Positions 22,477-25,665 of a stretch of 64,000 nt of DNA are shown here, one piece after another. The notes below the pieces were generated by a model, which worked only from the letters and a program-made list of their open reading frames with translations, did no database searches and was not told the origin of the DNA. Source of the stretch: Escherichia coli (GTDB lineage: Bacteria; Pseudomonadota; Gammaproteobacteria; Enterobacterales; Enterobacteriaceae); assembly GCF_003334405.1 (NCBI RefSeq), contig NZ_QOWM01000003.1; one strand, 5' to 3'. Position numbers and translations under genes: made by a program. Every line of letters starts with the position of its first letter. Position 1 is the first letter of the stretch.

Positions 22477-22819
22477 GTTTTGTAACCTGTTGACTATGCT
22501 TGTTTATTATATCCGATCCCACAGCGTGGGGCATGGATGGGGCAAACTCACTCAATTTCTGGTTTAAAATGGATACCTGATCCTGAAAGTTTTCTGCCAT
22601 CCACGATCCGTAAACGCGATAACATGTTTTGTCTTCGCTTTGCTCCCAGGAAGAGTGAACTCATTCGTTAGCCTGGGGTTCCTTCTGATCATTATTGTTC
22701 CTGCCTTTATCTCTTGCCACGCCAGAGCCCCCTGGATACACATACACCAGGATGAAAACGGTGAGTTGTGTTCAAACTGTAGTACAATTCTCTCCAGTAT
22801 GAACAGGAAAGAATATGCT

Positions 22820-23152
22820 ATGAACCCTTATATTTATCTTGGTGGCGCAATACTTGCAGAGGTCATTGGTACAACCTTAATGAAGTTTTCAGAGGGGTTT
22901 ACACGGTTATGGCCCTCTGTTGGCACAATTATTTGCTATTGTGCATCATTCTGGTTATTAGCTCAGACGCTGGCTTATATACCTACAGGGATTGCTTATG
23001 CTATCTGGTCAGGCGTCGGTATCGTTCTGATTAGTTTGCTTTCCTGGGGATTTTTTGGTCAACGACTGGACCTGCCAGCTATCATAGGCATGATGTTGAT
23101 TTGTGCCGGTGTGTTAGTCATTAACTTGTTGTCACGAAGTGCACCGCATTAA
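22820..23152 (+). CDS. emrE: SMR-family multidrug efflux protein EmrE
   Basis: 110 aa MNPYIYLGGAILAEVIGTTLMKFSEGF... with the conserved membrane-embedded Glu14; four TM helices. Confidence 0.92.
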   Translation: MNPYIYLGGAILAEVIGTTLMKFSEGFTRLWPSVGTIICYCASFWLLAQTLAYIPTGIAYAIWSGVGIVLISLLSWGFFGQRLDLPAIIGMMLICAGVLVINLLSRSAPH

Positions 23153-23320
23153 AAAATAATTATCCTTGAGATAACAGGAATCTGATTTGTGCATATTATG
23201 GCTAATGTTCGGGGCACCTTTATAATTATGATTGCATTTGCGCGATCATTGCGCCTTTATGCATAATGAGATCAAGGCACATCAAATAAAATAACGATAG
23301 GTCACAACAATGAGGTTTTT

Positions 23321-23872
23321 ATGAAAAAACTTATCGTTTCAAGTGTATTGGCATTCATAACATTTTCTGCGCAGGCCGCAGCATTTCAGGTCACTAGTAA
23401 TGAAATAAAAACAGGAGAGCAACTTACAACGTCTCATGTATTTTCTGGATTTGGGTGTGAAGGTGGTAATACATCGCCCTCATTAACTTGGTCTGGTGCT
23501 CCTGAAGGCACCAAAAGCTTTGCCGTAACTGTGTATGATCCAGATGCTCCTACAGGCAGTGGATGGTGGCACTGGACTGTTGCTAATATTCCAGCAACTG
23601 TAACATATTTGCCCGCTGATGCAGGAAGACGTGATGGTACAAAACTTCCGACTGGTGCTGTTCAAGGCCGAAATGATTTTGGTTATGCAGGATTTGGTGG
23701 AGCATGTCCTCCCAAAGGAGATAAACCCCATCATTACCAGTTTAAAGTATGGGCTCTAAAAACTGATAAAATTCCTGTGGATTCTAATTCCAGCGGAGCG
23801 TTAGTTGGTTATATGCTTAATGCCAATAAAATTGCAACCGCTGAGATAACACCAGTTTATGAGATAAAGTAG
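23321..23872 (+). CDS. ybcL: Periplasmic PEBP/RKIP-family protein YbcL
   Basis: 183 aa with signal peptide MKKLIVSSVLAFITFSAQA and PEBP-like core. Confidence 0.88.
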   Translation: MKKLIVSSVLAFITFSAQAAAFQVTSNEIKTGEQLTTSHVFSGFGCEGGNTSPSLTWSGAPEGTKSFAVTVYDPDAPTGSGWWHWTVANIPATVTYLPADAGRRDGTKLPTGAVQGRNDFGYAGFGGACPPKGDKPHHYQFKVWALKTDKIPVDSNSSGALVGYMLNANKIATAEITPVYEIK

Positions 23873-23881
23873 GGTAAGAGT

Positions 23882-24679
23882 ATGCTGGCAAAAGATAAGA
23901 CTAACCTAAAGATTGAAGAAATACGGATGCATAAACATCATGAGATTCACAGGGTTAAGCCTCTTATGCCAGCTTTATGTCGTATCCGTCAGGGAAAAAA
24001 AGTTATCAATTGGGAGACGCATAGTCTAACTGTTGATAATAATCAGATAATATTATTTCCCTGTGGATATGAATTTTATATTGCGAATTATCCAGAAGCA
24101 GGTCTTTATCTTGCAGAAATGCTTTATTATCCCATTGATCTAATTGAAAAGTTTCAAAAATTTTATGCGATAACTGATCAAATTCGTAACACGACAGGTT
24201 TCTGCTTACCTCAGAACCCCGAGTTAATATATTGTTGGGAGCAACTAAAAACATCTATTTCCCGAGGCTTCTCAACGCAAATTCAGGAACACTTAGCAAT
24301 GGGCGTTCTACTTTCATTAGGAGCACATCATGTTAATTGTTTACTTTTATCAGATAGTAAACAATCATTAATAAGTCGTTGTTATAACCTAATGCTATCC
24401 GAACCTGGAACAAAATGGACAGCAAACAAGGTAGCGAGATATCTCTACATTTCTGTTTCCACATTGCATCGCCGTCTGGCAAGCGAGGGAGTAAGTTTTC
24501 AAAGTATATTGGACGACGTGAGGTTAAATAATGCGTTGTCTGCTATACAAACGACAGTAAAACCCATCAGCGAGATTGCCAGGGAAAATGGTTACAAGTG
24601 TCCTTCTCGTTTTACTGAAAGGTTCCATAATCGTTTTAAGATAACACCAAGAGAGCTAAGAAAAGCGTCCAGAGAGTAA
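23882..24679 (+). CDS. ybcM: AraC-family transcriptional regulator YbcM
   Basis: 265 aa with C-terminal AraC-type HTH. Confidence 0.85.
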
Positions 24680-25003
24680 AAGTATTTTATGAAGGAGCAA
24701 CAGCATCGATTTTTATTTTGGAAAATAAATACGGCATACTCAACCTATTGGAGTCTGAACAATCCGGTGACTTCTGCGCTAATCGGGGACGTTTCTAAGC
24801 ACATATAATTGATACTATCTTCCTCCATCACAATTTCAGAAATGCACGTGTGATTTTTTTGCATCCGGCGTTTGGACTATGTGGAGCTCAAGAGTGGGAA
24901 AGTTACAAGAGGTTGAGGGGATAATTAAAGGGATGCTTATGACATTAGATATCCGGTTAGGTGCGGATATCGTTGTTATTAAATCTAGTTGATACGTTAA
25001 GAT

Positions 25004-25360
25004 GCAGCTACTGACAAAATAGCCAGGACTCCACAAAACGCCTTTGTCGTAATACCTGACTGCAATATCTGGTCGATCTCGTCGCAGTAACCTACTCGAT
25101 ACGCCTTTGAGGCTGTTTACCAGACTGGATATCGCCAGTTTGGGAGGATAGTTAATTAACAAATGGACGTGATCTGGTCCGCCATCCATTTCAACCCGTT
25201 CAGCTTCAAAATCAGCACATACATTTGAAAAGTAAGTGCGTAGTTTTTCTGTCGCGTCATGGTCAAAAATCTGACGTCGGTATTTAGTAACGAAGACTAG
25301 GTGAACATGCTTCAGGAAAACACAATGCCTTCCGCGTCGGATATCGGTTTCTTTTTTCAT
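25004..25360 (-). pseudogene. tnpA: IS200/IS605-family TnpA (Y1 HUH transposase) fragment
   Basis: About 119 aa MKKETDIRRGRHCVFLKHVHLVFVTKYRRQ...DHVHLLINYPP... with HUH motif HVH; region that should carry the catalytic Tyr helix is not recognisable. Confidence 0.75.
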
Positions 25361-25382
25361 AGGCCAAAGTATGATTTGGCCC

Positions 25383-25664
25383 ATGAAACGACTACAGGCA
25401 TTCAAATTCCGGTTAAGACCAGGTGGTCAACAGGAGCGTGAAATGAGGCGCTTCGCAGGCGCATGTCGTTTCGTTTTCAATCGTGCTCTGGCGCTTCAGA
25501 ATGAGAATCATGAGGCCGGTAATAAATACATCCCTTACGGGAAAATGGCTTCCTGGTTGGTTGAGTGGAAAAATGCCACTGAAACGCAATGGCTTAAAGA
25601 TTCGCCCTCACAGCCATTGCAACAGTCACTGAAAGACCCTGAGCGGGCTTACAAAAACTTCTTC
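25383..25664 (+). pseudogene. tnpB: IS605-family TnpB (OrfB) N-terminal fragment
   Basis: 94 aa MKRLQAFKFRLRPGGQQEREMRRFAGACRFVFNRAL...ERAYKNFF matching the TnpB N-terminal domain; RuvC-like and zinc-finger regions absent. Confidence 0.75.
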
Positions 25665-25665
25665 C

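Follow-up and report, generated by a model that had tools for sequence, protein, structure and literature searches.

How did an efflux gene, a periplasmic protein gene, and a regulatory gene known from the DLP12 prophage of Escherichia coli K-12 come to lie beside the flagellar genes in other E. coli strains? This question is raised by the interval between fliE and yedK (positions 22477 to 25665) in a stretch of 64,000 nucleotides (nt) of E. coli contig NZ_QOWM01000003.1 (assembly GCF_003334405.1), which is referred to here in its entirety as the window. The interval contains intact emrE, ybcL, and ybcM genes, a dead fragment of the insertion sequence (IS) IS609 of the IS200/IS605 family, and a truncated yedK gene. 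Profile matches and the list of open reading frames (ORFs) recovered all five at the positions given for them in an earlier note on this DNA. We conclude, with a probability of roughly 88%, that the interval represents the eroded remains of a lambda-like temperate phage, integrated at the end of fliE, and that this relic was later altered by IS609 and two deletions. It is an ordinary cryptic-prophage relic of an already known kind, the K-12 counterpart of which is already annotated as PR-G.

The identity of the three intact genes was established from profile hidden Markov models and from comparison with DLP12. emrE (22820 to 23152, plus strand) encodes an SMR multidrug efflux protein of 110 amino acids that matched the NCBIfam model NF042984 (SMR_efflux_EmrE) over residues 1 to 110 of 110 at 240.5 bits (cutoff, 226), and the membrane-embedded residue Glu14 is present in its translation. 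ybcL (23321 to 23872, plus strand) encodes a periplasmic PEBP/RKIP-family protein of 183 amino acids that matched the NCBIfam equivalog PRK09818 over residues 1 to 183 of 183 at 401.8 bits (cutoff, 277); its N terminus, MKKLIVSSVLAFITFSAQAAA, looks like a signal peptide when judged by eye. ybcM (23882 to 24679, plus strand), so named in RefSeq, encodes a protein of 265 amino acids. Its C-terminal 100 amino acids matched many NCBIfam AraC-family helix-turn-helix models, all below equivalog cutoffs, and 244 of its 265 residues are identical to those of DLP12 YbcM (21 differences). By sequence, YbcM is a predicted AraC-family regulator and the orthologue of K-12 YbcM.

The order of these genes and of the gene fragments around them is that of a lambdoid phage. 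Homology to DLP12 begins at 22744 to 22819 (plus strand), which holds the last 9 nt of ren and the ren-emrE spacer. Together with emrE, this piece (22744 to 23161) is 91.4% identical to DLP12 (L005) positions 6001 to 6416 and about 92% identical to phages 4A7, Lambda_4C10, 1W, 3W, Perceval, and Turner, in which it is annotated Ren/EmrE. The adjoining piece (23166 to 24896), which spans ybcL, ybcM, and the ylcH region, is 89.6% identical to DLP12 positions 8500 to 10230. Its final part (24680 to 24896, plus strand) is a nin-region leader with a ylcH-like small ORF, the reading frame of which is broken; it matches both DLP12 and the start of the phage 82 nin region. Next comes a pseudogene of the Q antiterminator (quuD-like; 24891 to 24992, plus strand) that retains the last 33 codons and the stop. 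Its translation, RVGKLQEVEGIIKGMLMTLDIRLGADIVVIKSS followed by the stop, aligns with the QuuD C terminus; positions 24896 to 24994 are 82% identical to the quuD 3′ end of DLP12 (12003 to 12103), and the remnant is 83% identical to the Q genes of phages ev243, ev017, and 2G7b. The island matches DLP12 in order, as it does viable lambdoid phages, in which its segments are annotated Ren/EmrE, YbcL/YbcM, and Q; the sequence of int, ren, nin region, and Q is colinear with lambda-type phages. The suggestion in the earlier note that emrE, ybcL, and ybcM are cargo of the DLP12 type is therefore borne out. In strains 09-02E (L004) and UTI89, colinearity extends through an nmpC-like porin up to the region upstream of essD; in L004, it takes in DLP12 positions 12003 to 12803 and 13572 to 14479. 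DLP12 genes not found in the island are ylcJ-ybcK and those from ybcN through most of quuD; for ybcK and ylcJ, the border sequences were not decisive between an insertion in DLP12 and a deletion in the island. No phage replication, immunity, lysis, or virion gene was detected in positions 22477 to 25665, so the locus qualifies only as a relic and not as a prophage.

The end of the island next to fliE shows how the phage would have entered. The earlier note reported no recognizable integrase or att site, and in this it was mistaken: integrase fragments lie at 22499 to 22743 on the minus strand, adjacent to an attL core, TGATGTCCATGCAGGTGTAG, at 22457 to 22476. The core consists of the last 17 coding nt of fliE and the stop codon, with which fliE ends at position 22476 in the ORF list. 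Its 20 nt are identical to the 20 nt that adjoin the integrase gene of phage IdasGreatGrand (L010 2481 to 2500), the attP region, and the match to the phage begins 20 nt inside fliE. From there it runs through the arm of the phage that separates the att core from the integrase stop codon (22477 to 22498) and into the 3′ end of the integrase gene, with 97% identity over positions 22457 to 22622 (L010 2481 to 2647). Fragment 1 of the integrase pseudogene (22499 to 22639, minus strand) corresponds to C-terminal residues 387 to 433 of the 434-residue phage tyrosine integrase (tblastn, 38 of 47 residues identical, E = 3e-23). This is the same remnant that K-12 annotates as intG (b1936, "cryptic prophage PR-G"), and RefSeq places an "integrase" pseudogene at the same position in L007 and L008. 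Fragment 2 (22618 to 22743, minus strand), in another reading frame, covers approximately residues 232 to 277 (tblastn E = 7e-11; 74% nucleotide identity between 22618 to 22727 and L010 2992 to 3107), and residues 278 to 386 are deleted between the two fragments. The remnant, which differs from that of strain E1316 (L002) by 10 mismatches and one 10-nt gap over 146 bp, is only a nonfunctional pseudogene.

The opposite boundary of the element is preserved in related genomes. In L004 (6342 to 6362) and L002 (5148 to 5168), an attR core that has a single mismatch is located 17 bp from the stop codon of yedK, at the precise point where homology to genomes without the island resumes, and the island of the L004 type is accordingly a 4.1-kb element bounded by attL and attR. 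In the window, the position of attR falls inside the first of the two deletions described below. A search for att-like repeats, as proposed in the earlier note, gave no second copy of the core in the window; the direct and inverted repeats bracketing the island there were only short two-copy chance families. We found no paper on a fliE att site or on this island in a literature search.

These boundaries bear on the idea that emrE-ybcL-ybcM is an ancestral chromosomal operon of the fliE-yedK region that was captured later by lambdoid phages such as DLP12. Such an origin would fit three intact genes under purifying selection, their presence in 48% of genomes, and a divergence that matches that of the flanking genes. 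Set against it are the phage pseudogene fragments on both sides in phage order (the integrase and ren end on one side and the nin leader and Q C terminus on the other, with the porin in sister genomes), the bracketing of the block by the attL and attR cores in L004 and L002, and a G+C content of 40.0% in positions 22623 to 25003, compared with 55.0% and 50.7% in the two flanking 10-kb segments. We regard an ancestral operon as highly improbable.

The other side of the island has been reshaped by IS609 and by two deletions. At junction A (25000 to 25004), sequence downstream of the Q-remnant stop is fused to the interior of tnpA: the window matches L004 up to position 25000 and the IS609 of L002 from position 25004, with tnpA joined at about codon 119. 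Compared with the sister loci, the window has lost the nmpC-like porin and attR as well as the left end of IS609 and the C terminus of tnpA. Because the window follows L004 for ten bases beyond the breakpoint of L002's own porin deletion, the deletion in the window is independent of the one in L002. The surviving tnpA codons 1 to 119 (25004 to 25360, minus strand) match positions 2 to 112 of 126 in the NCBIfam profile transpos_IS200 and include the HUH motif HVHLL. The C-terminal sequence GGAPISVIRQYIEQQ, present in the L002 and K-12 copies, is deleted here; in this family, the segment holds the catalytic tyrosine of TnpA. The first 95 or so of the 402 tnpB codons (25383 to 25667, plus strand) match positions 1 to 92 of 389 in the NCBIfam profile guided_TnpB. 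This fragment, annotated by RefSeq as a pseudogene without its C terminus, lacks the RuvC domain as well as the 3′ end and right end, the site of the guide RNA in TnpB elements. Both IS609 ends are missing from the window, which keeps only IS positions 117 to 780 (25004 to 25667, 664 nt).

Junction B (25653 to 25667), on which the end coordinate of the earlier note (25665) falls, fuses tnpB at about codon 95 to yedK at about codon 143. The two parental sequences of L002 overlap there in an imperfect microhomology, AAAAA..TTC..GG. The truncated yedK (25668 to 26091, minus strand), a RefSeq pseudogene, retains residues 1 to 143 of 222 and has lost its C-terminal third. Residues 1 to 143 aligned by phmmer with residues 1 to 143 of the YedK chains 6kcq, 2icu, and 6nua in the PDB, and the match to NCBIfam PRK09951 (positions 1 to 143 of 222) reached 324.6 bits, below the cutoff of 349; the SRAP domain is incomplete.

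Full-length IS609 provides the reference for these fragments. The copy in L002 is 1,747 bp long and 98% identical to the K-12 copy beside ydcO; in both, the two ends are present, the element lies 3′ of TTAT, and there is no target duplication. In L002, TTAT overlaps the yedK stop codon. Comparison of this insertion (L002 5186 to 6933) with L004 6379 to 6381 also showed that yedK becomes one codon longer (672 versus 669 nt) and is still annotated as intact. Full-length IS609 (at least 80% of its length) is present in 4,859 genomes. The full copies at L002 5249 to 5674 (E1316) and L014 463 to 888 (a K-12-derived strain) share an in-frame tnpA stop (GVSGR*LRR), and the relic in the window has a sense codon at that position (GVSSRLLRR); judging from these sequences, no continuous transposase gene seems to be present in the full-length copies examined. 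The tnpA ORF of the window (24836 to 25360, minus strand, 174 amino acids) consists of TnpA residues 1 to 119 plus unrelated sequence. RefSeq annotates this fusion as an intact "IS200/IS605 family transposase" (WP_001347174.1 in L001), although the catalytic-tyrosine segment is missing.

The IS remnant lies directly against the island, and each of the two deletions ends within this remnant, an arrangement that might suggest that IS609 brought in the cargo or mobilized it as a composite or one-ended transposition unit. Yet UTI89 and 09-02E carry the island without any IS609, and the IS of L002 is inserted as a separate unit at TTAT, past attR in the direction of yedK and outside the att-bounded island. 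Members of the IS200/IS605 family transpose as single-stranded circles delimited by their own hairpin ends and are not known to take flanking cargo with them, which also counts against transport by IS609, an explanation that we find scarcely credible.

The distribution of the island was determined by a megablast search of positions 21900 to 26500 against 5,426 complete E. coli genomes, in which a carrier was defined as a genome with one place covering at least 80% of the query. The island was present in 2,597 genomes (about 48%). By junction-specific queries, 1,109 genomes have junction A and 1,111 have junction B, and the double-deletion form accordingly makes up about 20%. At least six structural variants occur between fliE and yedK: that of the window itself (L001); a form with the complete 1,747-bp IS and intact yedK (L002 and L015, the latter from strain AR17.2B); a form with an OmpC-family (nmpC-like) porin, no IS, and intact yedK (L004 and UTI89); an IS3-insertion form (L006); a K-12 type with the intG remnant, a DUF5503/LRR pseudogene or genes, and yedL (L008, L009, and MG1655); and a minimal fliE-intG′-yedK form (L003 and L007), equivalent to the K-12 type with yedN and yedL deleted. 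These several forms mark the site as a variable hotspot, as the earlier note had supposed. Its statement that K-12 differs at this position also agrees with our data: MG1655 has yedL and pseudogenes of yedN and intG, and the interval is absent there. The term "accessory" was overstated, since the island is not rare and has diverged between lineages in step with the core genes that flank it; nor is the island universal, and the same content does not occupy this position in most E. coli lineages. No att-core copy was recognizable in K-12-type, minimal, or LRR-type loci. Alignment of K-12 (L017 5480 to 5506) with L004 6363 to 6389 showed that homology on the yedK side stops at precisely the base that adjoins the attR core. 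In AR17.2B (L015 650 to 1441), fliE is bordered by an IS1, beyond which comes an incomplete fliQ; the genes from fliF to fliP thus seem to be missing from this strain, which would hence be nonflagellate.

Divergence between carriers argues that the island is old. Compared with L002, the window shows 98.0% identity within the island and 97.9% and 97.2% in the flanks; for L004, the values are 99.4% for the island and 98.7% for both flanks. An island divergence that tracks the flanking core genes in this way suggests vertical inheritance of an old element rather than recent acquisition, and because relic copies of the double-deletion class differ by up to 2.4%, this allele is also old. A recent strain-specific acquisition, either as a nonphage genomic island or by recombination import, could explain the low G+C content and the absence of the island from K-12 and about half of the genomes, and homologous recombination across the conserved flanks could move the island between lineages. 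On such an account, however, identity of the island between distant carriers would not be expected to equal or slightly exceed that of adjacent core genes, as it does, nor would the exact double-deletion allele be expected in about 1,110 genomes with relic sequences that differ to the extent observed. We therefore consider recent acquisition unlikely as the origin of the locus. Spread by flank-mediated recombination is compatible with an old phage relic.

Several observations weigh against the phage-relic explanation. A virgin attB, sought with a synthetic fliE-core-yedK query in the 5,426 genomes, was not found among the top-ranked matches; the best matches were all two-piece and spanned 676 bp, corresponding to the minimal intG′ form, with no single-piece match on top. 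Nor did any of these genomes cover at least 80% of a synthetic query joining the phage arm, the core, and yedK, as an intact prophage of the IdasGreatGrand type would. With neither a virgin site nor an intact prophage among the top-ranked matches in complete genomes, integration at fliE is inferred from sequence. No structural, lysis, replication, or immunity gene is left at the site in any genome inspected, and apart from intG′, no phage homology was detected in the K-12-type content of the site (yedL and yedN). Identity to the phage is only 74% for integrase fragment 2, and an IdasGreatGrand-like integrase is combined with DLP12-like cargo; the ancestral phage would be a mosaic without a sequenced equivalent. 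The IS609 fragment in the window is only 95 to 96% identical to any full copy, with no full-length IS609 above about 96%. The original insertion point in the window lineage has been deleted, and insertion at the same TTAT as in L002 is probable.

Taking these points into account, we propose the following history for the relic. A tyrosine integrase would have inserted the phage into its attB, the final 20 nt of fliE, by site-specific recombination. Before integration, fliE and yedK would have faced each other as convergent genes with stop codons about 14 bp apart, and the reconstructed attB would read fliE...GTGTAG, then ATAATCTCCAGGCTTATC...yedK. Internal deletions may then have removed, in turn, the stretch from the integrase to the ren end, the nin genes with most of Q, and everything beyond the porin. 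This would leave attL, the integrase remnant, emrE, ybcL, ybcM, the ylcH remnant, the 3′ end of Q, the nmpC-like porin, and attR, the form that UTI89 and 09-02E retain. In the lineage of the window, IS609 was present beside yedK, and two illegitimate deletions would have followed. Deletion A, reaching from just past the Q-remnant stop into tnpA, would account for the loss of the porin and attR along with the left end of the IS and the TnpA segment with the catalytic tyrosine; deletion B, from about codon 95 of tnpB to about codon 143 of yedK, would account for the loss of the remaining tnpB sequence, the right end of the IS, and the final third of yedK. The end state is a locus incapable of prophage excision or IS transposition, in which the EmrE pump and the ybcLM operon (autoregulated by YbcM in K-12) would be host-expressed passengers, in a lineage without an intact YedK.

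Selection has acted on these passengers. Relative to DLP12, the ratio of nonsynonymous to synonymous substitution rates (dN/dS) was 0.036 for emrE, 0.072 for ybcL, and 0.119 for ybcM, with dS between 0.20 and 0.39. EmrE shows no amino acid differences from L002 and L004, and most changes between chromosomal carriers are synonymous. The low dN/dS values and mostly synonymous changes indicate that the cargo is maintained by purifying selection. With no functional integrase, no attR, no IS ends, and no active TnpA or TnpB, the locus is inert as a mobile element; its present role probably lies in the three cargo genes, which may well be expressed in this strain.

One of these genes differs among carriers at a residue of possible functional interest. 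At YbcL precursor residue 99 (23615 to 23617), which is residue 78 of the mature protein when a 21-residue signal peptide is assumed, the window has Ala, L004 (the protein accession of which is shared with UTI89) has Thr, and DLP12 has Val. The residue reported to decide the effect of YbcL on neutrophil migration is mature residue 78 (Val in K-12 and Thr in uropathogenic E. coli [UPEC]), which would be precursor residue 99. The ybcL gene of UTI89 is encoded in this relic, and the virulence-associated ybcL of this UPEC strain thus comes from the relic and not from DLP12. The transmigration of neutrophils is suppressed by the YbcL of UPEC (Lau et al. 2012, as summarized in PMC4810123), with active and inactive variants told apart by a single residue (PMC4810123). 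As for the regulator, loss of ybcM by mutation makes K-12 more sensitive to peroxide, and the K-12 protein binds DNA upstream of ybcLM (PMC8464067).

The relic explains why emrE-ybcL-ybcM lies beside flagellar genes in non-K-12 E. coli and ties this block to the intG/PR-G remnant of K-12. YedK is a SRAP protein, an HMCES-type abasic-site peptidase. The truncation of yedK in about 1,110 of the 5,426 complete genomes (20%) is relevant to the choice of strains for studies of abasic-site DNA-protein crosslink repair. The value of these results lies mainly in annotation and interpretation, and the understanding of prophage decay and IS biology is unchanged. A broader proposal is possible but doubtful: that the last 20 nt of fliE are a lambdoid attB occupied by a relic in every E. 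coli examined, that one haplotype has been kept species-long for host-beneficial EmrE and YbcL/YbcM, that the IS609-associated deletion has made about one-fifth of sequenced E. coli natural yedK nulls, and that the third YbcL allele (Ala99) in these strains might differ in activity.

Other features of the window were also recorded. No Rfam family matched inside the island; gathering-score matches elsewhere in the window (1436 to 1525, 9862 to 9948, 43173 to 43472, and 61696 to 61773) correspond to rseX, DsrA, three tRNAs, and C0465, as expected for a K-12-like chromosomal region. Counts from a scan for promoter and terminator consensus sequences were at or below shuffled expectation and have no bearing on expression. 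Porin-like sequence at 210 to 960, which is 68 to 75% identical to DLP12 nmpC and adjoins the rseX small RNA (1436 to 1525), is consistent with the yedS porin gene or pseudogene. Between yedK and yedF, a short palindrome, cccgctgtgggccacagcggg (26167 to 26193), gave reverse-strand self-matches in every locus compared and looks like a repetitive extragenic palindromic (REP) element.

Comparison with known systems places the relic among several partial relatives. The intG/PR-G remnant of K-12 has the same integrase C-terminal remnant directly downstream of fliE, with the same junction, but K-12 continues with the yedN pseudogene, yedL, and intact yedK and has neither emrE-ybcLM nor a recognizable attR at this site. 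Phage IdasGreatGrand (PP925829), a lambda-like temperate phage, shares the identical 20-nt core and, at 97% identity, the arm and integrase 3′ end. It is, in contrast, a complete phage of 47.9 kb with the full lambda gene order, DNA searches gave no emrE, ybcL, or ybcM match in it, and its left attP arm was not found beside yedK in complete E. coli genomes. IS609, as represented by the K-12 insQ copy beside ydcO, has the same divergent tnpA and tnpB, and the window fragment is 95% identical to it over 664 nt. The window differs in keeping only tnpA codons 1 to 119 and tnpB codons 1 to 95, without ends, catalytic Tyr, or RuvC domain, and its tnpA fragment lacks the in-frame stop seen in the K-12 and L002 copies.

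DLP12, located at argU in K-12 and B, is alike in the order and orientation of the ren end, emrE, ybcL, ybcM, ylcH, the quuD 3′ end, and the nmpC porin (82 to 92% nucleotide identity) and in having an integrase gene on the opposite strand at its left end; both elements are defective. They differ in integration site (a tRNA-Arg gene for DLP12 and the fliE 3′ end for the relic) and in integrase, that of the relic belonging to a family unrelated to intD. The relic also lacks ylcJ/ybcK, ybcN-ninE-ybcO-rusA-ylcG, most of Q, and the lysis genes, and dS values of 0.2 to 0.39 between the two imply long separate histories. The ybcL locus of UTI89 is the same locus with the same island, in the order yedK, porin, ybcM, ybcL, emrE, fliE. 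UTI89 keeps the porin, attR, and intact yedK, has no IS609, and encodes Thr at YbcL residue 99, where the window encodes Ala.

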